Of a stretch of 64,000 bases of DNA, positions 31,966 to 61,552 are shown in pieces (position 1 is the first letter of the stretch; every line of letters begins with the position of its first letter). The position numbers and the translations under genes are program-made. Below the pieces are notes generated by a model. It was not told the DNA's origin, did not search any database, and worked only from the letters and a program-made list of their open reading frames with translations. This DNA comes from an uncultured Planctomycetia bacterium. GTDB lineage: Bacteria > Omnitrophota > Gorgyraeia > Duberdicusellales > 4484-171. Location: positions 5,789-69,788 of the forward strand of contig CAZJOV010000001.1 of assembly GCA_964547735.1 (NCBI GenBank), written 5' to 3'.

Positions 31966-33100
31966 AGACACCAGCCAATTTTTCTCCGCAGAATTTACAC
32001 CTTCCCTGAATAAGATTGTTTTCTTCAACAGAAAACCCCATTCTTTTTATAACCATCTTTCCGCAGTGAGGACAATAAGTATTTTCTCCATAATCGGTAA
32101 AAATATTACCAATATAGATGTATCTTAAACCTTTTCTCTTCCCAATTTTGTAAGCTTTCTCTAATACGGACAAAGGAGTAGTTTTGCTTTCATAAAACCG
32201 GTAATCAGGATGAAAACGATTAACATGCCAAGGGATATCATGAGAAAGAGAAGCAATAAAAGAAGCTATTTCTTCCAACTCTTCATCAGAATCGTTTAAT
32301 CCGGGAATAAGCAAAGTGGTTATCTCAACCCAGATTCCCAACTTTTTCATCAATTCTATATTCTTCAAAACCGGACTTAGAGAGGCTCCACAATATTTTT
32401 TATAGAAATCCTCAGAGAAAGCTTTCAAATCAATATTTGCCGCATCCAGATAAGGAGAAATCAACCTTATTGCCTCCTCACTCATAAATCCATTAGTGAC
32501 AAAATTGTTATAAAGCCCTCTTTTTTTAGCTAATTTTGCACACTCATAAGCTAACTCAAAAAATACTGTGGGCTCAGTATAAGTATAAGAGATACTTTTA
32601 CACCTATGATAGAAAGCCTCCTCTATAATCCCCTGAGGAGAAAAAAATCTACCTCTAATCCCTAACCTGTCTGCTTCTTTTTTCTGAGAGATTTCCCAAT
32701 TCTGACAAAACAGACACCTAAAATTACATCCTATACAAGCAATAGAATAAGCTAATGAGCCAGGAAGAAAATGAAAAAAAGGTTTTTTTTCGATAGGGTC
32801 AATATTTTTAGCTACTACTTCTCCATAATTTAAAGTATAAAGAAAACCTCCCTGGTTTATTCTTACTCCACAACGTCCTTTACTTCCTTCTTTAATTATA
32901 CAAAAATGGCTACAAAGATTACATCTTACCTCTTTATTTCTCCCTTTAATATATAGTAATGCTTCTTTCACAGAATCAATTATATAATTGATTTTCTCCC
33001 AATTCAATGTTAATATATAGCAGAATGAAAATAAAGGGAGAAAAAGCGATTGATCGGGATATAAAAAAAATTGAAGAGATTTTTTTTTCAAAACCTCCAA
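31958..33100 (-). CDS. radical SAM enzyme, AmmeMemoRadiSam-system type (PFL-activase-like)
   Basis: N-terminal Cys cluster VRCNLCSHFC...GRCGVR, and the radical SAM CxxxCxxC motif CIGCNFRCLFCQNWEIS. The true start is probably a non-ATG codon near 32993 (TTG in LNWEKINY), because the ATG at 33100 would overlap the divergent gene starting at 33007. Confidence 0.8.
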   Translation of the reverse strand: MEVLKKKSLQFFLYPDQSLFLPLFSFCYILTLNWEKINYIIDSVKEALLYIKGRNKEVRCNLCSHFCIIKEGSKGRCGVRINQGGFLYTLNYGEVVAKNIDPIEKKPFFHFLPGSLAYSIACIGCNFRCLFCQNWEISQKKEADRLGIRGRFFSPQGIIEEAFYHRCKSISYTYTEPTVFFELAYECAKLAKKRGLYNNFVTNGFMSEEAIRLISPYLDAANIDLKAFSEDFYKKYCGASLSPVLKNIELMKKLGIWVEITTLLIPGLNDSDEELEEIASFIASLSHDIPWHVNRFHPDYRFYESKTTPLSVLEKAYKIGKRKGLRYIYIGNIFTDYGENTYCPHCGKMVIKRMGFSVEENNLIQGRCKFCGEKLAGVYE

Positions 33101-33675
33101 AAAAAAAGAAAAAACATATATTTTTTATCCTTACTGGTTGCTTAATACTCTTAGGCAGTGCATTCCTCTTTTTTCAACATTATAGAATACTTCTTCTTCC
33201 CTATCTTAAAAAACCTAAATTGAGCTTACTTACTAACAAATTTCTAAAATCAATAAAATTCTCTACCTCTCAAGAAAAAATAAGATTCTCCCAAGGAACA
33301 ATATACCTTCCTCTTTCTTATAACAGGCCGCAAGAATTAATCCTCAATACAAAGAAACCGATAGATTTAGAAAATAATTTTCTCTGTCTTCATCTTAAAT
33401 TTTTAACACATTCCTCACCTAAATTAGAACTAATATGTGTGGTAAGAGACGAAAAATATTATTCCAATGTCCTTACTCCTTATAAAAAAAAGATTGCCTA
33501 TCATTCTAAGGAAGCCCCAAACTCAGCAGTTGTTCTTGTTAACCTTGAAAGTCGTTCTTCCCTAACAAATTTTTCTAAGATAAAACAAATAAGATTAACT
33601 TTTTATAATCTGAGGAGAAACCCTGTCTCTTTACTGATTGAAGATATAAAACTTAAAGAAAAGGAGGTAGAATGA
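33007..33675 (+). CDS. hypothetical single-pass membrane protein (N-in TM helix plus ~160-aa extracytoplasmic or cytoplasmic domain), partner of the ParA-like ATPase
   Basis: A Lys-rich N-terminus (KPPKKKKKH), then the hydrophobic helix IFFILTGCLILLGSAFLFF. I recognise no family. Its stop overlaps the downstream ATPase start (ATGA). Confidence 0.5.
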   Translation: MLIYSRMKIKGEKAIDRDIKKIEEIFFSKPPKKKKKHIFFILTGCLILLGSAFLFFQHYRILLLPYLKKPKLSLLTNKFLKSIKFSTSQEKIRFSQGTIYLPLSYNRPQELILNTKKPIDLENNFLCLHLKFLTHSSPKLELICVVRDEKYYSNVLTPYKKKIAYHSKEAPNSAVVLVNLESRSSLTNFSKIKQIRLTFYNLRRNPVSLLIEDIKLKEKEVE

Positions 33676-34694
33676 ATGTCATTACTGTAGTTAACCAGAA
33701 GGGAGGCTGCGGGAAAACTACCACCAGCGCGAACCTCTCCTTTGCTTTAAGTAAGAAATACAAAACTCTTTTAATTGATTTGGACCCTCAGGCTCATTCT
33801 ACTTTTTATCTGGGAATTAAGAATAATGATGATAAAGGTATCGTAAAGTTGTTTGAAGCCTCATTAGCGGGAAATTGCAGGATAGAAGAGTTTGCCCAAA
33901 GAAGAAACGATAATCTTTTTATTCTATCTTCCCGACTCAGCTTAAGTGTGTGGGAACACAAAATAAATCAATTTCCTGATCGTCTATTTTTCCTTTATAA
34001 GATTCTCTCCCAAAATTCCTTTTCTTACGATTATGTTATTATTGATTGTCCTCCCAACTTGGGCCTTCTCTCTCTTAATGCCATTGTGGCCAGTTCACAC
34101 CTTCTTATCCCCCTTTTGGTGTGTCCTTTTTCTCTGAAAGCACTAAAAAGCCTTCTGCAAGTGCTAAATTTAGTTGAAGAAAAGATGGGTAAAAAAATTA
34201 CTCCTTATTATCTTATAACTCAGCTTGATAAACGTGCTAAATTTTCTCTGTATTTCGTAGAAAAGATGAAAAAAGAACTAAAAGGGAACATTCTTAATAC
34301 AGTAATTAGAACGAATATAAGTTTAAGAGAAGCCTCCTTTAAAGGATTAAGCATTTTTGAATACAAGCCTTTATCTCGTGGGGCAAAAGATTATAAAACT
34401 CTTTCTGAAGAGATTATAAATCTTACTCAAGATAAAGGATGGGCTTATTTTTTCTTTAAAGGAAAGGATATTAATAATGTCTATATAGTAGGCGACTTTA
34501 ATCGTTGGCAGAAAGATGAAGAGTATAAAATGAAAAAAGCAGACGAGGAAAGTTGGTTCTTAAATTTTCCTCTTAAAAAGGGAAAGTATCACTATAAATT
34601 TCTGGCTGCTAACCGATGGATTGCTGATCCCCTCAATCCCTTTCAGGAAGATGACCCCTATGGAGGGAAAAACTCAGTATTAGTTATAAGTTAG
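33672..34694 (+). CDS. ParA/MinD-family deviant-Walker-A ATPase fused to a C-terminal AMPK-beta/CBM48-like glycogen-binding module
   Basis: Deviant Walker A VVNQKGGCGKTTTSANL, Walker A' DLDPQ, and Walker B IIDCPP. The C-terminal ~85 aa, VYIVGDFNRWQ...EESWFLNFPLKKGKYHYKFLAANRWIADPLNP, match the AMPK-beta GBD/CBM48 consensus (V.L.GSFNNW....F...L.LP.G.H.YKF.VDG.W..DP..P). Confidence 0.7.
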   Translation: MNVITVVNQKGGCGKTTTSANLSFALSKKYKTLLIDLDPQAHSTFYLGIKNNDDKGIVKLFEASLAGNCRIEEFAQRRNDNLFILSSRLSLSVWEHKINQFPDRLFFLYKILSQNSFSYDYVIIDCPPNLGLLSLNAIVASSHLLIPLLVCPFSLKALKSLLQVLNLVEEKMGKKITPYYLITQLDKRAKFSLYFVEKMKKELKGNILNTVIRTNISLREASFKGLSIFEYKPLSRGAKDYKTLSEEIINLTQDKGWAYFFFKGKDINNVYIVGDFNRWQKDEEYKMKKADEESWFLNFPLKKGKYHYKFLAANRWIADPLNPFQEDDPYGGKNSVLVIS

Positions 34695-35085
34695 ACAAGA
34701 TTTTAAGTGCTTTCTCATTATCATTAGAAGAAAAAATCAAAGTAGCTACCTGAGAAGAAGATGTTGTGCCGTAGATATATTCTAAATCAATACCTTCTTC
34801 TTTGAGTTTCCCTCCCAACTTATGAAGCTGACCTATCTCATCAGGAAGCTCAACTAAAACTACTTCTTTAAGCTCTACATTATGGTCTTGAGAGAGAACT
34901 TCTTTTGCTCTTAAATTATCTGAAGTAATTATCCTAAATATGGCTTGATTGTCTCTAACGTAAGCACAGATTGTGCGAATATTTATATTTTTTTGCGCAA
35001 TAACCCCTGTTATCTGAGCCAATTTCCCTACTTCATTTGAAGTAACCAAAAAAATTTCTTCTGTTTTTACCACCTTCATTTTCAC
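34684..35085 (-). CDS. tandem ACT-domain protein
   Basis: 133 aa with two beta-alpha-beta-beta-alpha-beta-like repeats (VGKLAQITGVIA...NI and VELPDEIGQLHKLGGKL...ID). Confidence 0.6.
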   Translation of the reverse strand: MKMKVVKTEEIFLVTSNEVGKLAQITGVIAQKNINIRTICAYVRDNQAIFRIITSDNLRAKEVLSQDHNVELKEVVLVELPDEIGQLHKLGGKLKEEGIDLEYIYGTTSSSQVATLIFSSNDNEKALKILSNL

Positions 35086-35089
35086 CTCC

Positions 35090-35668
35090 TTAATTTAGAG
35101 AATGGGAGAAGGAAAACAAATTTACTGAAGGTATACTAACTTCCGGATTCTTCGCAGAAACATCCTCATCAGGTAGATATCTTCCTTTTAAAGCTTCAAT
35201 TTTAAATACTCCTTGCGAGGTATCAAAAGAAAATTTACAATCCACAATTCGAGAAGATAGGTCAGTATAATGATTAAGGTTGGATGCATCCGGATAGAAC
35301 CTTACGGTATGCAGAGAATAATTATATGCATACCTTCTTATAGTATCATCACTATAATCTGAAGGAGTTTTACTTAAATCATTTCTTATATCCACATAAC
35401 AATTATTGAAGTTACAAGCTGATATATCTGCCTGCCAGTTTACACTTATTCCTACATTATCTGTATCTGCTACATCTCCTATCGCTTCCCTTAAACGCTT
35501 GTCAAGATGATGAATAATAGAAGAAATATCAGCTAAAACCTCACCACGATAATCCTGTCTTTTATACATCTTCAAAGCCGCCACCTCAAACGTTCCCACT
35601 GCCAGAACTACCAACCCCAACAAAGAAACGGCAATAATCAACTCCACCAAAGTCATTATCTTTCTCAT
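35090..35668 (-). CDS. type IV pilin-like / pseudopilin-like protein with non-canonical N-terminal processing site
   Basis: N-terminus MRKI-MTLVELIIAVSLLGLVVLAV has the hydrophobic alpha1 helix and Glu at +5 of a class III signal, but Ile rather than Gly at -1. The first ATG (the ORF track's GTG start is 3 nt upstream) overlaps the upstream gene's stop by 1 nt. Confidence 0.6.
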   Translation of the reverse strand: MRKIMTLVELIIAVSLLGLVVLAVGTFEVAALKMYKRQDYRGEVLADISSIIHHLDKRLREAIGDVADTDNVGISVNWQADISACNFNNCYVDIRNDLSKTPSDYSDDTIRRYAYNYSLHTVRFYPDASNLNHYTDLSSRIVDCKFSFDTSQGVFKIEALKGRYLPDEDVSAKNPEVSIPSVNLFSFSHSLN

Positions 35669-35991
35669 CACCAGCTTATGTTAAAAGTCACTTTGCGACA
35701 CTCCTGACCGGTTACAGTTACAGGTTCTACGTTATAGCTTAAGCTATATTTTCCTAAGGAACCCAAATCATACGAACCTAAGGAGAGTGCTCCGCTATCC
35801 CAGGTATCTTCTCTTACCTCAGAAAAAAGAGCATTTAGATTACTCTCTGCTAAAAGAGCACCCTCAAAAACATCTTCTGCAAAACGGACTGTACCTCTTA
35901 TATTTGCAAATACTGCTATTATCGCGGCAAAAATAACCATCACAATAAAGGTAGCAACAAGTATCTCTAAGAGAGTGAAGAAGTTTCTCAT
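35668..35991 (-). CDS. type IV pilin-like protein (minor pilin-like) with non-canonical N-terminus
   Basis: N-terminus MRNF-FTLLEILVATFIVMVIFAAI has an FTLLE motif with Glu+5, a 3-4 residue leader, and no Gly at -1. A stop lies immediately upstream of the ATG, so no alternative start can supply a Gly. Confidence 0.6.
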   Translation of the reverse strand: MRNFFTLLEILVATFIVMVIFAAIIAVFANIRGTVRFAEDVFEGALLAESNLNALFSEVREDTWDSGALSLGSYDLGSLGKYSLSYNVEPVTVTGQECRKVTFNISW

Positions 35992-36291
35992 CTAAAAATT
36001 TAAAATCCTTTTTACTTCTTTTTTTGAAAACGCTTTCTTGAAATCTCCAAAATCAATAAACTCTGCCTCAGAATACAATTTTTTAAACTTTCTTACTAAA
36101 AAAGCATCCGCTTTTCGACGAAATCCTATATATTTAAACTCCTTCTTACACTGAGGACATTTTTTCTCTCCAATCTTTATCCCTACTTTATGACAGGAAA
36201 AACACTCTCCAGAAAGTTCTCCTACTACCAAAAGATGATTTTTTATCTCTTCCAAATCTAATTTCATCCATATCCTTAAAAAATCTTCCAT
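35992..36291 (-). CDS. small zinc-ribbon protein (CxxC-x13-CxxC)
   Basis: ECFSCHKVGIKIGEKKCPQCKKEF makes a four-Cys ribbon. I trimmed the start to MEDF... because the longer ORF would overlap lpxC-fabZ by 40 nt. Confidence 0.45.
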   Translation of the reverse strand: MEDFLRIWMKLDLEEIKNHLLVVGELSGECFSCHKVGIKIGEKKCPQCKKEFKYIGFRRKADAFLVRKFKKLYSEAEFIDFGDFKKAFSKKEVKRILNF

Positions 36292-36292
36292 C

Positions 36293-37606
36293 TCAAGAAT
36301 CAACAAGGGAAAAAATAAGCTCAGCTTCCGCAACTATTTTCCCTCTCACAAATGCTTTTGTATAAACCACACCTGTCCTCGTTTTTATTTTACCACAAAT
36401 CACCTCAATTACAAGTTGATCTCCTGGGATAACTGTCTTTCTAAATTTTACCTTATCAGCAGCCATAAAATAAGCAAGTTTTCCTCGGTTTTTCTGATCC
36501 GCAAGCATAAGAACTCCCCCTACCTGTGCCATCGCCTCAATAATTAACACCCCCGGCATAACGGGACGCGAGGGAAAATGCCCTTTAAAAAAATAATCAT
36601 TAATAGTCACATTCTTTACTCCCACCGCTTTTTTGCCCGGCTCTAAACAAAGAATCTTATCTACCAACAAGAAAGGATAACGATGAGGCAATATCTTCAT
36701 TATCTCTTCCACAGAAATCTCCTCTTTCTGGGGGAAAAAATCGCCAAAAGAACTAACTCCTCCTGAAGTGATATTTCTGTAATATTCTTTAATCCTTTTG
36801 ACTAATTTAATATTGAGATTATGGCCACTTCTTATCGCAATCACATATCCTTTAAGGGGACCAGCCAAATACAAATCTCCCAGAAGATCCAAAACTTTAT
36901 GTTTCACGAATTCATTGGGAACTCTTAACTGGTTATTAACTACCTTATCTGAGGAAACCACTAAAGTATTTTCATAGTTAGAACCCTTTCCCAAGCCCAT
37001 CTCCAAAAGAGATTTTACTTCCTCCTCAAGACAAAATGTTCGCGCTTGATGAATATCTGTTTCATACTTTCCATCTAAATTTATGTCTAAGTAATCCGTA
37101 TTAATTAAAGGATTATTATACTTTAAAGTATAAGCGATTCTTAAAGAGGGATAAGGCAATACACAAAGAGAAGCATCTTCCTCCTGAACCCACAAGGGTT
37201 CTTTTATAGATAGGTATCTACGAGACAAGGACTGCTCCACAATCCCTGCTTTTTTTAAACATTCAACAAAATCCTTAGCACTTCCATCCATTCCGGGAAT
37301 TTCCTCTCCCCAGATATCAATTCTTAAATTATCAATTCCCAAAATATGTAAAGCAGCCATAAGATGCTCAATTGTATGGATATAGACAGAATTCTCTCCG
37401 ACAGAAGTGCGTCGAGGAAATATTTCAGGGTCCACTACTGAATAATAATCTGCCTTGATTATAGGATGAGAACTTAAGTCTCGACGGACAAAAAAAATTC
37501 CACTGTTAACAGAAGCAGGTAAAAACTCTATCTTTACTTTTTTCCCTGTATGAAGCCCTACTCCCTCAAGAGTAATTTTATCCTGAATTGTCTTTTGCTT
37601 TTCCAT
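36293..37606 (-). CDS. lpxC: bifunctional UDP-3-O-acyl-N-acetylglucosamine deacetylase / 3-hydroxyacyl-ACP dehydratase (LpxC-FabZ fusion)
   Basis: The N-terminal ~280 aa carry LpxC motifs (TL...V...GVGLHTG, HTIEHL..AL...GIDN, the zinc-binding HKVLDL.GDL). The C-terminal ~145 aa form a FabZ hotdog ([11 protein letters not shown]....E, catalytic H in GHFP). Confidence 0.9.
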
Positions 37607-38636
37607 CTTTTACATATCTTTTTAATCTCTCTATTTCCTCTTCTAACTCTTTTATCTTTTTATAAAGCTGAGGCAACCTCTGAATACAAGCATTGACGCG
37701 TCGGGCTATATTATGAGGCTTTGCCGGATATCCAGAAACTTTCGTATGAGGAGGAACAGACTTTGTTACTCCTGCCTGAGCAGCAACCACTGCTCCCTCT
37801 CCTATATGAATATGCCCTACCACTCCTGCCTGACCAGCCAAAATTGTACCTTCTCCTATAGTCGTGCTTCCGGAAATACCTGCCTGAGCAACAATAATAC
37901 AGTTTTCTCCTATCACTACATTATGAGCAATCTGCACCAGATTATCTATCTTCGTCCCTTTCCCTATAACCGTTTTATCAAAACGAGCACGATCAATGGT
38001 TACATTTGCCCCAATTTCTACATCATCACCAATAACTACAATCCCAATCTGAGGTATCTTCTCTCTTACCCCTTTAACCGTAGCAAATCCAAAGCCGTCA
38101 CTGCCAATAACGGCTCCGGAATGGATAATTACACGATTGCCTATCTCGATTCTTTCTCTTATAGAAACACAAGGATAGATTAAACACTTCTTACCAATTT
38201 TAGTCTTATACCCAATGTAACAATTTCCATAAATTATAGAATCATCACCAATCTCTACATCTTCTTCAATAATCGTATAAGCTCCTACCGCTACATTTTC
38301 CCCTAACTTTGCACTTTGTGCAATTATTGCTGTAGGATGAATTCCTTTAGGATGATGAGTATCTGGAGGAGCAACTAAACTTACAACTTTAGTAAAAGCT
38401 AAAGAAGGGTTATCCGTACGAATAATCGGCTTGTTGGCATATTCAATCTCTTTTGAAGTTATAACTGCAGAAGCTTTTGTTGTCTTCATCAAAGAGAAAT
38501 ACTTAGGGTTAGCCAAAAATGTAATATCCCCCTCTTTTGCCTCTTTTATTCCCGAGATGCCGGTAATTACTATCTCTGGATTTCCGACCAATTCTCCATT
38601 AATTATTTCAGCTATCTTTTTTAAGGTAATTTTCAT
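37578..38636 (-). CDS. lpxD: UDP-3-O-acylglucosamine N-acyltransferase
   Basis: The N-terminal LpxD-specific domain (L.EIA..I.GEL.G) is followed by left-handed beta-helix hexapeptide repeats, then a C-terminal helical extension. Length 352 aa. Confidence 0.9.
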
Positions 38637-39139
38637 CTCTTATAATTTTGATTCACTATTTTTAAAATGGTCATTGTCAAATCCGCTCCCTCTTCTCCAT
38701 AAAGAATAGCCCCTTTATTAAAGATAAACTTATAACCATTCTTCTTTCCATATTCTTTAACCACACGATTTATATCCTCTACAATCTCTCTCATTTTCTC
38801 ATCTCTTTCCTTCTTTAAATCCAAGAAAAATTGTCTTTCCATCTTACGATATTCATCCGCTTTTTTAGTAATCTGGGTACGTTGTTTTTCTTGTTCTTTT
38901 TTACTTAAAAGGCTCAATTTTTCCTGCATTTTCTTTATTTCTTCTTTCTTTTCTTCCAGGAGTTTCTCTTTTTCATTTCTCTCATTCTCTAACATCCTGT
39001 CATAATCTTGAGTTTTTTTGTATTGATTGAAGATTTTAAAAATATCTACATATCCAATCTTCAAATTTTGGGAATAAACTACAGCTGAATTCGTAAATAG
39101 AAAAATCAATAACAAAATTCCCTTTTTTATTCTCTTCAT
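38633..39139 (-). CDS. skp: periplasmic chaperone Skp (OmpH)
   Basis: Signal peptide, then a Lys/Glu-rich coiled-coil of ~150 aa. It sits between bamA and lpxD, the conserved position. Confidence 0.8.
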
Positions 39140-39158: not shown

Positions 39159-41429
39159 TTAAAACCCTCTACTTATACTGAAGTGAAACCTTCCTGCTTT
39201 TTTCTCCTCTCCTGGCTCTTTATTAAGAGGCCATCCATAATCCAAACTTATCGGTCCAATAGGCGTCTTAAGCCTTAAACCTGCCCCTATACTGGATTTA
39301 ACTCCTCCACTTAAAAAATCACTTCTCTCTCTCCACACATTTCCACTATCAAAGAAAGCTGCTACTCTTAAAAATTTATTTAAAGCATAAACATACTCCA
39401 GATTAACAATAAAAAGCGCCTCTCCTCCCACAGGATCTTCTGTTACCGAATCAATAGGACCTACTTTTCTCTCATGATACCCCCGAATAGTACTTGCTCC
39501 TCCGGCAAAGAATCTCTCATAGATAGGAACCTTCTCAGTATCCGAAAAAGGATAGGCTATTCCTGCCCTTAATTTAAATTCTAAAACTGAACGCTTCTTT
39601 ACAGAGATGTATTTACTGAAACGAAACAAACTCTTTAAGAAATCTTTATCTCCTCCCAAGAACCCTCCTGTAATTTGAAAAGATAAGGAGGTATAAAAAC
39701 CCTGAGAAGGGTCAAAGACATTATCTCTCTTATCCCAGCCAAGACTCATCTCTACACTACTTAAATCCGCTTTTCCTTCTTCCTCCTTTAAATCTGACGT
39801 TGCCTCAGAAGGCACATCTTTAATCTCCACATTCTCCAATCGATAAGAAATCCCTCCTTTTAAATAATCATTAAATTCTTTCCCCAATCTTAATCTTCCT
39901 CCTTTTGCCTCCACCTCATAGCCATACCCTACATCTCCTTCTCTCTCATGACCTTTTTTATATCCATCAAAGCCGAAAGAAACAGGATAGTCAAATATCC
40001 AAGGCTCTGTAAAACTTAACTCATAAGTCTCTGTAAGAGTTCCGCTGCTTATATACAAACTCAAATCTTGACCAGCCCCGGTAAAAGTCTTCCAGTTACG
40101 GTAGTCAAAATTACGCTGTCTTAGCTCAACAAAGCCAACCAATTTATCCACCGAGGAATAACCTCCCCCAAAACTTAAATAACCTGTCTTTTTCTCTTTA
40201 ACTTCCACAATCAACTTTTGCCAGTTAGGACGGGAAGTAGGATGGGTATCAAAACCTATCTCTTCAAAAAAACCTAAATTCTCCAGGCGTCTTTTTGACT
40301 TTCTTATTTTTTCTCCACTAAATCTATCTCCCGGATAAATTCTTAATTCTCTTCTAATCACTTTATCTTTTGTTTTCTCGTTTCCTTGAATAATTATTTC
40401 CTCTACATAATTAACTTCATTTTCGACAATTTTAAATGCAACATCCACTTTTTCTGTCTGAGGATTAAAATAAGTTAAAGGAGTTACCTGGGCAAATATA
40501 TAACCTTTATCGAAATATAAAGATTGGATTTTTCCTACTTGCTCTTTAATCCTTTCTTCGGTATAGACATCCTCCTTTTCAAGAGAAATTGACTTATAAA
40601 TCTGGGAAGAAGATATTTCTTTATTCCCTTCAATCTTTATCTCTCCTATAAGATACTGCGGACCCTCCTCAATATTAATAGTAACAAAAACTCCTCCTGC
40701 CAGATAATCCCAGGCATAATTTACCTTTATATCGGCAAAACCATTCTTTCTATAGAAATCTTTAATTCGCTCAACATCATCCTCCAAAGTCTCTTTTTTA
40801 AATATTCCTCTCCCCAGCAGCCACGCTTTTTTGGTACGCATAAGTTTTTTTATTCTTTTTGCAGAAAAGCTCTTATTTCCTTTTATGATTATCTTTCTTA
40901 CTTTAAGAATTTTTCCTTCTTTTATCATTATTTTTAGAAAAGCCTGATTATTCTTTTTATCTATGTCTAAAGAATACTCCACATCTATCCGGGAAAAACC
41001 TTTCTGAGAATAAAACTCCTTTATCTTCTTCAGTGCCTCTTTTACTTTAAGCTCGTCTAAAAAAGTTCCCTCTTTTATCCCCATAATCTCCAGTATCCTT
41101 CTTCTTCTTACATAACGGGTTCCTTCAATAATAATTTTTTTAACTACAGGCATCTCCTTTACTTTAAATTTAACTATGACTCCTTCAGGAGTATCTATCC
41201 TCTCTGCTTCTACTTTCTCAAAATATCCTAAATCCATTAGTGATTTCACATCTTGATTCATAACTGTTTCTCTATAGAGTTGACCTACTTTTGTTTTAAG
41301 GGAAGAAACTATTTTGGAACGGCTAATGATCTTGTTGCCTTCGATTTCTATGCGAACAATAAGATTATTTTGAGAAAAAGCAATGGGGAAAAATACAAAA
41401 GAAAAAATAAAAAAAAATAATTTTCTCAT
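39159..41429 (-). CDS. bamA: outer membrane protein assembly factor BamA
   Basis: Signal peptide, five POTRA-like repeats, and a C-terminal 16-strand beta-barrel ending in an aromatic residue (SISRGF). I trimmed the start to MRKLFFFIFSF to avoid overlap with dnaB. Confidence 0.9.
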   Translation of the reverse strand: MRKLFFFIFSFVFFPIAFSQNNLIVRIEIEGNKIISRSKIVSSLKTKVGQLYRETVMNQDVKSLMDLGYFEKVEAERIDTPEGVIVKFKVKEMPVVKKIIIEGTRYVRRRRILEIMGIKEGTFLDELKVKEALKKIKEFYSQKGFSRIDVEYSLDIDKKNNQAFLKIMIKEGKILKVRKIIIKGNKSFSAKRIKKLMRTKKAWLLGRGIFKKETLEDDVERIKDFYRKNGFADIKVNYAWDYLAGGVFVTINIEEGPQYLIGEIKIEGNKEISSSQIYKSISLEKEDVYTEERIKEQVGKIQSLYFDKGYIFAQVTPLTYFNPQTEKVDVAFKIVENEVNYVEEIIIQGNEKTKDKVIRRELRIYPGDRFSGEKIRKSKRRLENLGFFEEIGFDTHPTSRPNWQKLIVEVKEKKTGYLSFGGGYSSVDKLVGFVELRQRNFDYRNWKTFTGAGQDLSLYISSGTLTETYELSFTEPWIFDYPVSFGFDGYKKGHEREGDVGYGYEVEAKGGRLRLGKEFNDYLKGGISYRLENVEIKDVPSEATSDLKEEEGKADLSSVEMSLGWDKRDNVFDPSQGFYTSLSFQITGGFLGGDKDFLKSLFRFSKYISVKKRSVLEFKLRAGIAYPFSDTEKVPIYERFFAGGASTIRGYHERKVGPIDSVTEDPVGGEALFIVNLEYVYALNKFLRVAAFFDSGNVWRERSDFLSGGVKSSIGAGLRLKTPIGPISLDYGWPLNKEPGEEKKAGRFHFSISRGF

Positions 41430-41461
41430 TTGTTTAATTATACCTTCCTCAAAACACAAAG

Positions 41462-42823
41462 TCAATCTTCTCTTACCTTGGAAAGATTAACAAACTTCAT
41501 ATATTCTTTTATAAATCCCAAGAAAACGCTTCCTACCGGACCGTTTCTTTGTTTAGCAATAATAACTTCAGCAATTCCTTTATTCTCCGGGGTAGGATTA
41601 TAGTACTCTTCCCGCAGAAGTAACACTACCACATCCGCATCCTGCTCAATTGCCCCTGATTCTCTCAAATCAGAAAGCTGAGGGCGATGATCCGCGCGTG
41701 TTTCTACCGCTCGTGACAATTGACTTACAGCAATCAAAGGAATATCTAATTCTTTGGCTAATGCTTTTAAGGCTCGAGAGACTTCAGAAATTTCCTGTTG
41801 TCTTGATTCCTTTCTTCCTAGTGTACGCATCATCTGAAGATAATCAATAACCAAAAGTTTTATATCATGATGAGCCTTTAATCTTCTTGCTTTTGCTCTC
41901 ACTTCAAATATATTCATCAAGGGTGTATCATCGATATAAATGGGAGCGCCCGACAACTTTCCGGCAGCAGAGGTAAGAAGAGGCCATTCACTGGGAGAGA
42001 GAAACCCCGTTCTTAGTTTATGGATATCCACTTTAGCCTGAGAACATAACATTCTCTGAATAAGCTGCTGGCGGGACATCTCCAGACTAAAAAAAGCTAC
42101 CGGTAAACCCTCCTCAACCCCTGCATATTCAATAATATTACTTACAAATGCGCTTTTACCCATACTGGGGCGTCCAGCAACAACAATAAAATCGCCTTTT
42201 TGTAAACCTGCTGTTTTTATATCAAAATCGACAAAGCCGGTAGGGATTCCTGTAATATGAGATTTCTTATAGTAAAGAGATTCAATCACCTCAATACTTT
42301 CTTTAAGAATCTCTTTAATATGAGTATATCCCCCCTCAACTCGTGCATCACTTATCTCAAAGATTAATTTTTCTGCTTTGTCAAGAATAGAATTTACCTC
42401 TTCCTCTTCTTTATAAGCTAAGGATAAAATCTTATGGGCATTATTTATTAAAGACCGCAGGATCCCTTTTTCTCTAACAATACGCGCATAATATCCTACA
42501 TTAATGGAAGAAGGGACAAAATCAGCCAGAGTAGTTAAATAAGTAGCTCCTCCTACTTTCTCTAAAAGTTTTTTCCTGCTTAATTCTTCTGAAACAGTAA
42601 GAATATCTGCTTTTTTCCTTGCATCAAACAAAGAGACTATAGAAGAGAAAATAATTCTGTGTTCCTCTTTATAAAAATCCTCCTCCCCAACTATCTCTAT
42701 TACCTCCAAGATAGCTTCCTCATTAATAAGCATTGCTCCTAAAACCGCCATCTCTGCCTCAATATTTTGAGGAGGGATTTTTTCTAATTCCGAAGATAGA
42801 GAGGTTACTTTTTGACTACCCAT
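41462..42823 (-). CDS. dnaB: replicative DNA helicase DnaB
   Basis: N-terminal PPQNIEAE..VLG..L, Walker A GRPSMGKSAF, and the SQLSR arginine finger region. Length 453 aa, with no intein. Confidence 0.95.
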   Translation of the reverse strand: MGSQKVTSLSSELEKIPPQNIEAEMAVLGAMLINEEAILEVIEIVGEEDFYKEEHRIIFSSIVSLFDARKKADILTVSEELSRKKLLEKVGGATYLTTLADFVPSSINVGYYARIVREKGILRSLINNAHKILSLAYKEEEEVNSILDKAEKLIFEISDARVEGGYTHIKEILKESIEVIESLYYKKSHITGIPTGFVDFDIKTAGLQKGDFIVVAGRPSMGKSAFVSNIIEYAGVEEGLPVAFFSLEMSRQQLIQRMLCSQAKVDIHKLRTGFLSPSEWPLLTSAAGKLSGAPIYIDDTPLMNIFEVRAKARRLKAHHDIKLLVIDYLQMMRTLGRKESRQQEISEVSRALKALAKELDIPLIAVSQLSRAVETRADHRPQLSDLRESGAIEQDADVVVLLLREEYYNPTPENKGIAEVIIAKQRNGPVGSVFLGFIKEYMKFVNLSKVRED

Positions 42824-59404: not shown

Positions 59405-60485
59405 TTTTTATATTTTGTCTCAAGAAGTGATAGATGAAATCATCTATTTTCCCATCTAAAACTTCATAAGCCGAGGAGGTTTCAAACTGAGTACGGTGGT
59501 CTTTTACTAAAAGATACGGATGGAGAATATAAGAACGGATTTGGTTTCCCCATTCTATTTTTTTCTTCTCTCCACAAATTTTTTCCATCCTTTCTCTTTT
59601 TTTCTCCTTCTCTAAGGCATATAGTTTTGCCTTTAAAATCCTTAAAGCCGTCTGCCGGTTCTGGTATTGAGAGCGTTCATTTTGACAGGAAACTACAACT
59701 CTGGTGGGAAGATGAGTAATTCTTACTGCTGAATCAGTACGATTAACATGTTGGCCTCCGTGCCCAGAAGCACGAAATGTCTCAATCTTTAAATCCGCAG
59801 GATTAATTTTGACCTCTTCCTCACCAATCTCAGGAATTATACTTACCGACGCAAAAGAAGTATGCCTTCGGCGATTAGCATCAAAGGGAGAGATTCTCAC
59901 CAACCGATGTACGCCTTTTTCTGACTTAAGAAGGCCGTAGGCAAATTTTCCTTCTACAAGAAAAGTTATATTTTTTATCCCTGCCTCCTCTCCTTTCAAT
60001 TCATCAAGAACTTTTATCCTAAATTTTTTATCCTCTGCCCATCGAAAGTACATCCTAAAAAGCATACTCACCCAGTCACAAGCCTCTGTCCCTCCGGCTC
60101 CGGCATTTATCTCCACAATTGCATTACTGTTATCAAACTCCTCAAAGAAAAGAAAAGAAAGCTCAATCTCATTTAACCTTCTTTCTATTCTTTTAAGCTC
60201 CTCTTCTAACTCTTTCTCTAAGGAAGAATCATTTAAGCTTGCCAGCTCCTCTAATCCCTTCAATTTCTCTCCTATTTTTTCCATATCTTCTACATCTTTT
60301 TTTAAACTCTTGAATTCCTCCGTTATCTTACTTGTTGATTTTATATCTTTCCAAAAGGAAGCTGAAGACATTTTCTGTTCTAATTCTTTTATCTTCTTTT
60401 TCTTCTCCTCTATTTTTAAATTTTTGTAGAGAGAGCTCCACTTCTTCCTCAATTTATCAATTGTGTTTAAAATTTCCAAAATCAA
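59397..60485 (-). CDS. prfB: peptide chain release factor 2 (single ORF, no programmed frameshift)
   Basis: It carries the SPF tripeptide (RISPFDANRRRHTSF) that is diagnostic of RF2 and the GGQ motif (SGHGGQHVNRTDSAVRITHLPT). It has a continuous 362-aa frame from the N-terminus. Confidence 0.9.
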   Translation of the reverse strand: MILEILNTIDKLRKKWSSLYKNLKIEEKKKKIKELEQKMSSASFWKDIKSTSKITEEFKSLKKDVEDMEKIGEKLKGLEELASLNDSSLEKELEEELKRIERRLNEIELSFLFFEEFDNSNAIVEINAGAGGTEACDWVSMLFRMYFRWAEDKKFRIKVLDELKGEEAGIKNITFLVEGKFAYGLLKSEKGVHRLVRISPFDANRRRHTSFASVSIIPEIGEEEVKINPADLKIETFRASGHGGQHVNRTDSAVRITHLPTRVVVSCQNERSQYQNRQTALRILKAKLYALEKEKKRERMEKICGEKKKIEWGNQIRSYILHPYLLVKDHRTQFETSSAYEVLDGKIDDFIYHFLRQNIKND

Positions 60486-61552
60486 ATTAGATCCCTTCTT
60501 TTCAAATTAAGATGAAACTCTTCTTTTTTATCTGCATATCCTAAAGCCAACTGAGGAGAGATGATCCTTCTCTCTACCAGCTCCAGCAAAGACTGATCAA
60601 AGCTTTTCATTCCATAAATTTCTCCTGAGGCAATATATTTGGGTATCTCCCATAATTTATTTTCTCTTAAAAGACGAGAAATGGTAGGAGATAAAGTCAT
60701 TATCTCATAAGCAGGAATTAATCCTTTCTTGTCTACCCGAGGAAGAAGTCTCAGGCAAATTACTCCTTTAAGAAGAACGGATAATTGCATTAAGATAAAA
60801 GAATGCTGATAGGGGGGGAAAAAGTTTATTATCCTCTCGATTGTGGTAGAAGCATTTACGGTGTGGAGGGTGGAGAAAACCAAAATTCCTGTCTCCGCAG
60901 CAGTTAAGGCGGCATAACAGGTATCTTGGTCACGAATGTTACCAATAAAAAGAACGTCAGGAGAATGCAAAGCAAACTGTCTTAATGCTTCCTGATAAGA
61001 AGAAACATCTTTCCCGATCTCTCGTTGATTGATTATTGACTTTTTATCGAAAAAAGTAAACTCAATCGGTTCTTCAACCGTAAGGATGTGCCTTCCGAAG
61101 TTACAATTAATGTATTCTATCATACTGGCAATAGTTGTAGATTTACCACTTCCGGTAATTCCTGTAAGAAGAATTAATCCTCTCTTCTCCTGACAGAATC
61201 TTTCTAAAACTGTTGAGGGAAGATTCAATTCGGTGAAAGTGGGAACTCTCAAATCGATCTTTCTTATCACCAAAGCTACAGTATTTCTCTGATAAAATAT
61301 ACTCATACGAAAACGCCAATGCTCTTTAAACCATATCGCAAACTCACAGCTTTTTCTTTTTAGAAAATTATCTTTCAACTCTTGAGGCAAAATTTCAGCA
61401 ATTATTTTGTCTAAATCTTGAGATAAAAATTCATAATCATCAATTGGTCTTACCTCACCTAAAACCCTCCCCTTAAGTACACTGCCAGCTCTTACAAAAG
61501 CATCAGAAGCATTCTCCTCAATCATTCTCTCAGCAATATAAGAAAAATCCAT
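60482..61552 (-). CDS. pilT: type IV pilus retraction ATPase PilT/PilU family
   Basis: Walker A GITGSGKSTT, Asp box and Walker B (ILTVEEPIEF, LFIGNIRD), His box AAETGILVFSTLHT, and the PilT-specific ISRLLRE-like motif. Confidence 0.85.
   Translation of the reverse strand: MDFSYIAERMIEENASDAFVRAGSVLKGRVLGEVRPIDDYEFLSQDLDKIIAEILPQELKDNFLKRKSCEFAIWFKEHWRFRMSIFYQRNTVALVIRKIDLRVPTFTELNLPSTVLERFCQEKRGLILLTGITGSGKSTTIASMIEYINCNFGRHILTVEEPIEFTFFDKKSIINQREIGKDVSSYQEALRQFALHSPDVLFIGNIRDQDTCYAALTAAETGILVFSTLHTVNASTTIERIINFFPPYQHSFILMQLSVLLKGVICLRLLPRVDKKGLIPAYEIMTLSPTISRLLRENKLWEIPKYIASGEIYGMKSFDQSLLELVERRIISPQLALGYADKKEEFHLNLKRRDLI

Follow-up and report, generated by a model that had tools for sequence, protein, structure and literature searches.

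Two adjacent genes of the window (the whole 64,000-nucleotide stretch of DNA that was analyzed, from a Candidatus Omnitrophota bacterium), pil1 and pil2, encode a putative minor-pilin pair in which the predicted -1 position is occupied by Phe and Ile, respectively. Sequence comparisons suggest that in both families this position is constrained to small residues (Ala, Ser, Gly, and Thr, rarely Cys) and not to Gly, and the Phe and Ile of the window fall outside even this relaxed small-residue rule. Either the processing enzyme is unusually permissive, or the pilins work uncleaved. We consider it reasonably probable that the pair is a former component of a pilus operon, follows a relaxed -1 rule, and is still processed by a permissive peptidase.

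Gene arrangement, integrity, and selection

Table 1. Features of the pil1-pil2 locus and the PilT gene in the window (1-based window positions).
Feature	Coordinates	Strand	Description	Basis
pil1	35668-35991	minus	107 aa, predicted GspI/PilV-like minor pilin	starts MRNF↓FTLLE (MRNFFTLLEILVATF…)
pil2	35090-35668	minus	192 aa, predicted PpdB/PilV-like minor pilin	starts MRKI↓MTLVE (MRKIMTLVELIIAV…)
ZnR	35992-36291	minus	99 aa, CxxC-x12-CxxC zinc-ribbon	CFSC…CPQC
pil1 codon 4	35980-35982	minus	Phe at predicted -1	direct sequence reading
pil2 codon 4	35657-35659	minus	Ile at predicted -1	direct sequence reading
lpxC/fabZ fusion	36293-37606	minus		Pfam and NCBIfam matches, syntenic-locus gene tables
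lpxD	37578-38636	minus		Pfam and NCBIfam matches, syntenic-locus gene tables
skp	38633-39139	minus		Pfam and NCBIfam matches, syntenic-locus gene tables
bamA	39159-41465	minus		Pfam and NCBIfam matches, syntenic-locus gene tables
ACT-domain protein	34684-35085	minus		Pfam ACT (E 1.1e-10) and synteny
PilT	60482-61552	minus	retraction ATPase of type IVa pili (PilT/PilU family), orphan	TIGR01420, T2SSE

The pair lies in a tight, co-directional string of genes, with lpxC/fabZ, lpxD, skp, and bamA all located upstream of ZnR-pil1-pil2, and the ACT gene, which begins 4 nt past the pil2 end, closing the string (Table 1). As originally predicted from the sequence, both open reading frames (107 and 192 aa) are present with a short leader, Glu at +5, and a hydrophobic helix, and direct reading confirmed Phe (pil1) and Ile (pil2), neither Gly nor Ala, at position -1. 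The 99-aa CxxC…CxxC gene is co-directional and tightly packed, as had been described, but it precedes both pilin genes in transcription order rather than following them. ZnR is co-transcribed with pil1 and located immediately upstream of it, its stop codon TAG (35994-35992) abutting the pil1 ATG (35991-35989) with no gap, and translation of pil1 and pil2 is coupled, the stop codon TGA of pil1 sharing 1 base with the ATG of pil2 (TGATG). A read-through fusion of ZnR and pil1 was rejected, because the two genes are in different frames in relatives. Promoter and terminator scans returned signals not above shuffle expectation.

The original argument, made for the first gene, that no start-codon error lies behind the missing Gly holds for both genes. 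A stop codon is located directly upstream of pil1 and 5 codons upstream of pil2, the in-frame upstream residues of both genes lack Gly (stop-HKLV-MRKI for pil2, for which an alternative GTG start one codon upstream is possible), and no other start codon in frame upstream of pil1 or pil2 would place Gly at -1. A leaderless pil2 starting from Met5, the pick of some gene callers, was likewise rejected: Met5 is not conserved and is replaced by Ile, Val, or Leu in relatives.

The 1202-nt region is identical across 8 independent metagenome assemblies, which excludes sequencing error, and the N-terminus of pil1 is identical across 10. The dN/dS values (0.17 for pil1, 0.30 for pil2, and 0.18 for ZnR) place the pair on a par with the adjoining ACT and ZnR genes, 49 positions in pil1 and 74 in pil2 are invariant across the clade, and Phe(-1) of pil1 has been kept in 3 lineages that are ~0.4 apart in dS. 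Given the identity across the 8 assemblies and the dN/dS values of the pair, the 2 genes are neither errors nor pseudogenes. Furthermore, the N-terminal motif (M + 2-8 residues + [TSA][LIVMF]xE + 10 hydrophobic residues) has 2 matches in the six-frame translation, compared with 0.01 expected from 100 first-order Markov simulations.

Pilin features, families, and genomic context

Both proteins carry short, hydrophilic, positively charged leaders at the extreme N-terminus (MRN(F) in pil1 and MRK(I) in pil2), followed by a hydrophobic stretch of ~20 residues that is broken by Glu+5 (FTLLE-ILVATFIVMVIFAAIIAVF and MTLVE-LIIAVSLLGLVVLAV, with top 19-residue Kyte–Doolittle means of 3.15 and 2.71, respectively). 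An invariant VREDTWD motif marks the end of alpha1 in pil1, and C-terminal NPE and …FSHSLN motifs are conserved in pil2. The window proteins score below threshold against PF07963 (11.4 and 11.8 bits versus a cutoff of 21.2) and TIGR02532 (11.2 bits versus 16.3), in alignments that span profile positions 7-26 and miss the Gly column.

At the sequence level, pil1 resembles GspI, and pil2 resembles PpdB/PilV. The GspI model TIGR01707 matched pil1 with an E value of 5.5e-4 (20.4 bits, under the equivalog cutoff of 44.35), and hhalign against E. coli GspI gave a probability of 67% (E 5e-5) over 86 columns including strands. The pil2 family aligned with PpdB of E. coli across 88 of 187 residues, comprising the helix and first strands (95% probability, E 2.4e-8), whereas the hhalign match of pil2 to GspJ (51%) covered the helix only. 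These labels should be considered soft, because the named-family matches mostly comprise the N-terminal helix. For both proteins, AF2 predicted a long helix at the N-terminus together with a beta-sheet: the pil1 model (pLDDT 90.4) contains a helix at residues 7-57 and 3 strands, and the pil2 model (pLDDT 74.3) contains 9 strands along with helices at 4-35 and 40-63. Foldseek searches of the PDB with both models returned nothing significant, XcpW/XcpGHIJK entries appearing only at E ~2, and the only matches from profile searches of PDB sequences were weak ones to the N-terminal helix.

Within the families, PF07963 was matched by 9/27 pil1-family and 56/80 pil2-family members (E ≤ 0.01), GspI (TIGR01707) by 8/27 pil1-family members, and PilV by 5/27 and 19/80 members, respectively. 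PRK10557/NF007848 (PpdB) was matched by 30/80 pil2-family members (best E 6.7e-11), the NF007848 matches being confined to residues 1 to ~70 in the ten members that were scanned one by one. The family searches reach distant members with G↓FTLLE and precomputed PF07963 matches, and distant members of both families pass PF07963/TIGR02532 and have Gly(-1). Because some of the distant operon homologues carry Gly(-1) and pass PF07963, we assign pil1 and pil2 to the minor pilins. The type IV pilin-like identity proposed in the original prediction is thus upheld, these distant members being located at the 3' end of complete type IV pilus-like operons. The prediction also considered that relatives might have a canonical Gly(-1) and that the 2 window genes might be degenerate or pseudogenised: the former is the case for distant homologues, whereas the latter is contradicted by the dN/dS values. 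The homologues include P0011, a protein from a Candidatus Omnitrophota metagenome-assembled genome, and P0004, from Omnitrophica 4484_70.1. Only one pil1 locus was found in a GTDB-representative genome of the lpxC-locus clade; scans of genome contigs and metagenome contigs seeded on VREDTWD yielded 2 and 5 confirmed loci, respectively, and the taxonomic breadth given here derives from protein searches and not from these contig scans.

In other Omnitrophota, the homologous pair forms the last 2 genes of type IVa-pilus-like operons, with the order HTH, pilM/N, pilO, a small gene, secretin, pilB (with an MshEN domain), pilC, 2 to 3 major-like pilins, pil1, and pil2. This context was found in 4 independent loci (L017/L021/L026; L018; L019; L022), and tblastn ties pil1 and pil2 to the last 2 genes of the pilus-operon loci. 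Homologues fill the minor-pilin slots in five pilus operons. In the clade of the window, the pair is instead found in the housekeeping string bamA-skp-lpxD-lpxC/fabZ-ZnR-pil1-pil2-ACT, a synteny that persists down to ~50% pilin identity, and the wider surroundings are also generic housekeeping genes (ribosomal proteins, dnaB, bamA, lpx). ZnR is conserved at 73-81% identity within the lpxC-locus clade but missing from the pilus-operon loci, and it is not associated with pilus operons elsewhere. Its C-terminal half is basic, and its zinc-finger and rubredoxin-like matches are all sub-threshold.

The closest known counterparts are the minor (pseudo)pilin complexes for priming and the tip, GspH-I-J-K of the T2SS and FimU-PilV-W-X of type IVa pili (PpdA-PpdB-YgdB-PpdC in E. 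coli), which likewise are encoded by small, adjacent, coupled genes ending the pilin block of the operon and share the xTLxE N-terminus, the hydrophobic helix, and Glu+5; pil1 is also similar to GspI in size and predicted architecture (a helix and a 3-stranded sheet). In contrast to these complexes, there are only 2 members here, neither a GspK/PilX-like nor a PilY1-like partner was seen, the -1 residue is Ala, Ser, Thr, or Gly family-wide and Phe or Ile in the window, the window pair falls under every curated family cutoff, and in its clade it lies apart from the pilus operon.

The PilT gene pointed out in the original prediction is genuine (TIGR01420, 363.8 bits versus a cutoff of 319.1; Pfam T2SSE, E 8.5e-33), as is the lack of pilB, pilC, pilM, secretin, and peptidase genes in the window, where Omnitrophota queries (PilM, secretin, PilB, and PilC) and E. 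coli GspO had no tblastn match. The same queries detected no pilus genes or peptidase in the ~10 kb past each window end, and the GspO query detected no A24 peptidase in any of the fetched Omnitrophota DNA. Since PilT is retained, genes for a pilus machine are likely to lie in another part of the genome; nearly all Omnitrophota genomes are reported to have type IVa pilus clusters (PMC10066038).

Residues at the -1 position

Among 146 scorable cluster representatives of the pil2 family, the -1 residue is Ala in 50, Ser in 45, Gly in 32, Thr in 16, and Cys, Asn, and Val in 1 each, so that Ala, Ser, Gly, and Thr account for 143/146 and Gly for just 22%. In the pil1 family, the position is occupied by Ser (16), Gly (4), Ala (3), Phe (2), and Asn (1). 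The identity of the residue switches readily: nearest-neighbor pairs differ at -1 in 58% of cases, with E+5 invariant and T+2 and L+3 at least 90% conserved, and residues are mixed within single operons (G,G,S,T; S,G,G,S; G,A,S,S,A; and G,C,G,A,G). Among the alternatives offered in the original prediction, namely, no processing, a different mechanism, and an atypical recognition rule, the last is therefore the best supported of the 3, provided that it is limited to small residues.

Very few family members have a bulky residue at -1 (2/146 pil2-family representatives, ~1-2%), which hints at normal selection against such residues. In pil1, Phe is found in close relatives, Ser in the rest of the lpxC-locus clade, and Asn, Ala, or Gly more distantly; in pil2, the sister sequences have Val (P0002) or Ala (P0003 and P0004), and the A→V→I change occurred within sequences at least 78% identical, the bulky residues being shallow and recent. 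Phe and Ile are rare, recent extremes of a relaxed position, which pil1 reached from Ser (S→F) and pil2 from Ala by way of Val (A→V→I). Most members of the lpxC-locus clade keep Ser and Ala at -1, and relocation to the lpxC locus is therefore older than the bulky residues.

These distributions conflict with the textbook view. Reviews state that bacterial prepilin leaders end 'invariably' in Gly, or in Gly/Ala (PMC4471445; PMC10191384), and here a large bacterial minor-pilin family has Gly(-1) in ~1/5 of its members and switches among Ala, Ser, Thr, and Gly, with natural Phe, Ile, Val, and Asn variants persisting under purifying selection. The 'Gly or Ala' rule of PilFind and Pelicic 2023 accepts Ala(-1) in bacteria (PMC10191384; PMC3244431), and Ala is also the commonest pil2-family state (50/146), but Ser (45), Thr (16), Cys, Phe, Ile, Val, and Asn fall outside this rule. 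The leader likewise need not end in Gly in archaeal class III signal peptides (PibD/EppA-type), with PibD being more tolerant of substitutions around the site than FlaK (PMC4307647); the window pair differs from these in being bacterial, with Thr-Leu-x-Glu5, and in having homologues in operons with secretin, PilM/N/O, and PilT. Motif-based pilin finders and PF07963/TIGR02532 miss most such proteins, which have no precomputed Pfam domain, and pilin inventories of Omnitrophota are consequently underestimates. Pili of Omnitrophota are thought to be relevant to a predatory or symbiotic lifestyle. We found no paper commenting on pilin cleavage sites in this phylum.

Processing of the pair and alternative readings

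In the reading we favor, an ancestral pilus-operon pair has moved into the bamA-lpxC housekeeping string in the clade of the window. The 2 proteins would sit in the inner membrane through the hydrophobic N-terminal helix and, by analogy with GspI-J-K and FimU-PilVWX, may belong to the low-abundance priming complex of pilus assembly, which comes to lie at the tip. One operon is presumably served by one prepilin peptidase despite its mixed -1 residues, and because single operons mix these residues, we infer that the Omnitrophota peptidase takes any small residue at -1, with a specificity that may be like that of archaeal PibD-type enzymes. In model systems, Gly at -1 was 'absolutely critical' by mutagenesis (review PMC4471445), and Phe or Ile would accordingly be expected to block the canonical enzyme. 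Our best guess is that the window pair is still processed by the permissive enzyme, perhaps inefficiently, since the -1 position often holds Thr, with which Val is isosteric, since Thr+2, Leu+3, and Glu+5 are invariant, and since both proteins are under purifying selection. If the peptidase accepts such substrates, the substrate rule of bacterial A24 enzymes would be wider than assumed, and the S1 pocket of the Omnitrophota enzyme would provide an accessible natural experiment.

A less likely reading, to which we nonetheless give some weight, is that pil1 and pil2 are functional but uncleaved, remaining in the inner membrane as bitopic proteins with a stub of 4 residues in the cytoplasm. In this form they might serve to nucleate the base of the pilus or to anchor it, or they might have been exapted for an envelope function tied to the bamA-lpxC operon. 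The critical role of Gly(-1) for cleavage, described for every bacterial system tested (PMC4471445; PMC10191384), is consistent with this possibility, as is the purifying selection that continues on both genes. The occurrence of bulky residues in both genes of one genome, compared with their family-wide rarity, suggests that the requirement for cleavage has relaxed across the lineage, and the pair has left the pilus operon and is co-transcribed with genes for the outer membrane and LPS, in a synteny that holds down to ~50% pilin identity. However, the move to the lpxC locus preceded the bulky residues, most of the clade having Ser or Ala, and the neighbors are generic housekeeping genes, so that co-location constitutes weak functional evidence. 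Glu+5 and the Thr-Leu motif are also still invariant, and in known systems these residues are important for processed pilins to be assembled and methylated. We know of no functional uncleaved pilin. Improbable in our judgment is a more specific scenario in which the pair was cut from the pilus operon, wired into the outer-membrane/LPS operon, and lost cleavage in the subclade of the window to become a periplasmic module that is anchored uncleaved in the inner membrane and has an envelope-related role instead of serving as pilus subunits; if true, it would provide the first natural pilin-fold proteins working without leader removal.

Decay of the pair into relics, with the processing site lost and pseudogenisation under way, is very improbable and largely refuted by the selection analysis. 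The shallow, recent bulky changes and the scores of both window proteins under the family HMM thresholds would fit such decay, but the frames are intact and translationally coupled, the dN/dS values match those of the ACT and ZnR neighbors, Phe(-1) of pil1 persists in 3 lineages, and many positions are invariant across the clade.

Least credible of all is that the proteins are not pilins but signal-anchored or Sec-cleaved periplasmic proteins resembling class III substrates by chance, for although solved pilins gave no significant fold match, the PDB-sequence profile matches are weak and N-terminal, and a possible signal-peptidase-I-like site (A-V-F-A↓N) follows the pil1 helix, graded homology reaches G↓FTLLE members that pass PF07963, homologues fill minor-pilin slots in pilus operons, and the motif count is far over chance. 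The signal-peptidase-I site was rejected as a candidate, because it is not conserved (…VFV↓N in relatives), and the AF2 model places one continuous 50-residue pil1 helix through the A-x-A-like site with pLDDT >90.

Reading frames of the pilin-like genes

The genes pil1 and pil2 are transcribed from the minus strand behind a gene for a small zinc-ribbon protein, ZnR, which had been placed after the pilin genes in the original prediction and in fact precedes both. The spacing is tight throughout: lpxC/fabZ and ZnR are 1 nt apart, the pil1 ATG adjoins the ZnR TAG (0 nt), the pil1 TGA overlaps the pil2 ATG in TGATG, and pil2 is separated from the ACT-domain gene by 4 nt. In-frame stops lie directly 5' of pil1 and 5 codons 5' of pil2 (*HKLV-M), so that no Gly can be recruited by an earlier start, and the predicted absence of Gly(-1) is confirmed for both proteins. 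The 1202-nt region shows no differences among 8 independent assemblies from different samples; therefore, Phe(-1) of pil1 and Ile(-1) of pil2 are not sequencing artefacts. The pil2 start varies by gene caller (window 35654-35671, minus strand, and the loci L002, L008, and L009), and a leaderless 188-aa product from Met5 (MTLVELII…) is unlikely, Met at +1 not being conserved in relatives. Given the low dN/dS values and the 49 (pil1) and 74 (pil2) positions invariant across the relatives carrying the pair beside lpxC/fabZ (hereafter the lpxC-locus clade), pil1 and pil2 are, as judged from sequence comparison, real genes under selection, and pseudogenisation is ruled out.

Genes of the window, with dN/dS from comparison with the relative Candidatus Omnitrophica bacterium 4484_70.1
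Gene	Product or feature	Position	Strand	dN/dS
	222 aa, conserved, without family match	33007-33675		
ParA/MinD-like fusion	ATPase with C-terminal AMPK1_CBM / T9SS-plug-like beta domain	33672-34694	plus	
ACT	ACT-domain protein	34684-35085	minus	0.13
pil2	192 aa, MRKIMTLVELIIAV…	35090-35668	minus	0.30
pil1	107 aa, MRNFFTLLEILVATF…	35668-35991	minus	0.17
ZnR	99 aa, CFSC-x12-CPQC, C-terminal half basic	35992-36291	minus	0.18
lpxC/fabZ	LpxC/FabZ bifunctional fusion	36293-37606	minus	0.08
pilT	orphan PilT	60482-61552	minus	

Minor pilin identity and pilus machinery

Six-frame translation of the window gives exactly two occurrences of the pilin-like N-terminal motif, against 0.01 expected from Markov-1 simulations. 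The two window proteins reach only E ~0.2 with N_methyl models, in alignments that begin past the Gly column. Profile searches provide the bridge: the pil1 family (27 proteins, in which the motif VREDTWD is invariant) grades into PF07963-bearing members with …G↓FTLLE or …G↓LTLLE starts (arrow, predicted cleavage site), and the pil2 profile retrieved 528 cluster representatives at E <= 1e-3 from 1.8 billion proteins, with PF07963 matched by 56 of 80 sampled family members. Moreover, tblastn connects pil1 and pil2 with the final two genes of pilus operons, a place held by their distant homologues, pil1h and pil2h, in the loci L017/L021/L026, L018, L019, and L022. These operons run from HTH through PilM(-PilN), PilO, a small gene, secretin, an MshEN-domain PilB, PilC, and 2-3 major-like pilins to pil1h and pil2h; this arrangement is the type IVa pilus cluster described as nearly universal in Omnitrophota (PMC10066038). 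This profile bridge and the operon positions of the homologues bear out the predicted pilin-like nature of the pair, and pil1 and pil2 are type IV minor pilins. Similarities to individual minor pilins, which span mainly the N-terminal helix and first strands, comprise weak matches of the pil1 family to GspI (8/27; E. coli GspI alignment probability 67% over 86 columns) and PilV (5/27), and matches of the pil2 family to PRK10557 (30/80), PilV (19/80), and E. coli PpdB (alignment probability 95%, E 2.4e-8). AlphaFold2 models consist of a 50-residue helix with a three-stranded sheet for pil1 (pLDDT 90) and a 60-residue kinked helix with nine strands for pil2 (pLDDT 74).

PilM, secretin, PilB, PilC, and a GspO-like peptidase are absent from the window and from ~10 kb past either end. 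The PilT of the window is bona fide (TIGR01420, 363.8 bits versus a cut-off of 319.1); its gene has uvrC and a small DNA_binding_1 gene as neighbours to one side, prfB and secA to the other, and no other pilus genes within ~30 kb.

Residues preceding the cleavage site

Among the best 150 pil2-family representatives, 146 sites could be scored at -1, with Ala in 50, Ser in 45, Gly in 32, Thr in 16, and Cys, Asn, and Val in 1 each; position +1 is Val, Leu, or Ile, more rarely Phe. The pil1 family yielded Ser 16, Gly 4, Ala 3, Phe 2, and Asn 1. Nearest neighbours differ in the -1 residue in 58% of pairs, against an invariant Glu+5 and conservation of Thr+2 and Leu+3 at >=90%. Judging by these alignments, the pil1/pil2 family obeys a "small residue" rather than a "Gly" rule at -1, and the same apparently holds for Omnitrophota pilus operons in general. 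Successive pilins of single operons carry G, G, S, T (L017); S, G, G, S (L018); G, A, S, S, A (L019); G, C, G, A, G (L022); and G, S, A, G (L025). If each genome has one peptidase for one pilus, such mixtures imply an enzyme accepting G, A, S, T, and C. The pattern is at odds with the generalisations published for bacteria, which call for Gly or, in another version, for "Gly or Ala" (PMC10191384; PMC3244431), and resembles the looser archaeal situation (PMC4307647). Non-Gly residues extend beyond the minor pilin pair: the first, major-like pilin of L018 (9025-9513) reads …IRS↓FTLLE, a second pilin of L022 (9258-9569) has Cys(-1) in …SESC↓FSLSE, and Ala and Ser occur in L019 (9212-9975) and Ser in L025 (773).

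The original interpretation, which allowed for an atypical recognition rule, stands in part: the two proteins are minor pilins, and the rule of their family is one of small residues, of which Phe and Ile in the window are rare extremes; bulky or large polar residues are otherwise near-absent from the family, as the single Val and Asn illustrate. Of the pil1 sequences in the lpxC-locus clade, 11 have Ser(-1), and Phe(-1) is confined to the subclade of the window (the window itself, 4484_70.1, and the homologue P0012); the -1 residue of pil2 is Ala in 8 sequences, Val in 1 (P0002), and Ile in the window. This distribution implies relocation to the lpxC locus, followed by S->F and then A->V->I. 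Bulky residues in both genes of one genome suggest a lineage-level cause: the peptidase might be more permissive still, or cleavage might be less important in this lineage. We favour continued, possibly inefficient, processing of both proteins, because Thr, itself β-branched, often occupies -1, Val is its isostere, and Ile exceeds Val by one methyl; because the assembly-related Thr-Leu-x-Glu5 signature is unchanged; and because low-abundance priming pilins could bear slow maturation. The -1 variation offers a clear experimental handle on peptidase specificity.

Housekeeping neighborhood and ZnR

The pair belongs to a long co-directional string (prs, rplY, pth, rpsF, ssb, rpsR, rplI, dnaB, bamA, skp, lpxD, lpxC/fabZ, ZnR, pil1, pil2, ACT) that is kept, pilin pair included, in every relative, down to ~50% pilin identity. 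The window has a G+C content of 35%; its pil1 is identical to DRP76_01540, a MAG protein of "Candidatus Omnitrophota bacterium" (NCBI), and its pil2 is 78% identical to the 4484_70.1 homologue.

ZnR is more conserved across the clade than the pilins (73-81% versus 47-54% identity), and its zinc-finger and rubredoxin-like family matches are all sub-threshold. Depending on the gene caller, it has 91, 99, or 113 aa, the 99-aa start being favoured by the conserved FLR[IV]W-KLDLEE. Every ZnR found lies in an lpxC-type locus, and the pilus-operon loci examined all lack it; its only link to the pilins is co-transcription, and a link to the upstream lpxC/fabZ is equally possible.

The LpxC/FabZ fusion scores 464.8 bits against the NF009667 cut-off of 465. 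The slot after fabZ that lpxA usually takes is filled in the window by ZnR-pil1-pil2-ACT. In L004 (543-2735; JGI 3300028891 metagenome contig), lpxD and lpxC/fabZ are called as one 730-aa product, which could stem from a frameshift variant, or from an indel in the assembly where the two genes overlap by 29 nt. The ParA/MinD-like fusion gene, preceded by that for the conserved 222-aa protein, converges on the ACT gene, with an 11-nt overlap at the 3' end of the latter. Finally, the pil1 homologue P0022, labelled Candidatus Aenigmatarchaeota archaeon, and L020, a GTDB contig with a syntenic bamA-lpxC-pil locus labelled "uncultured Planctomycetia," are probably both of Omnitrophota origin, mis-binned or mislabelled.
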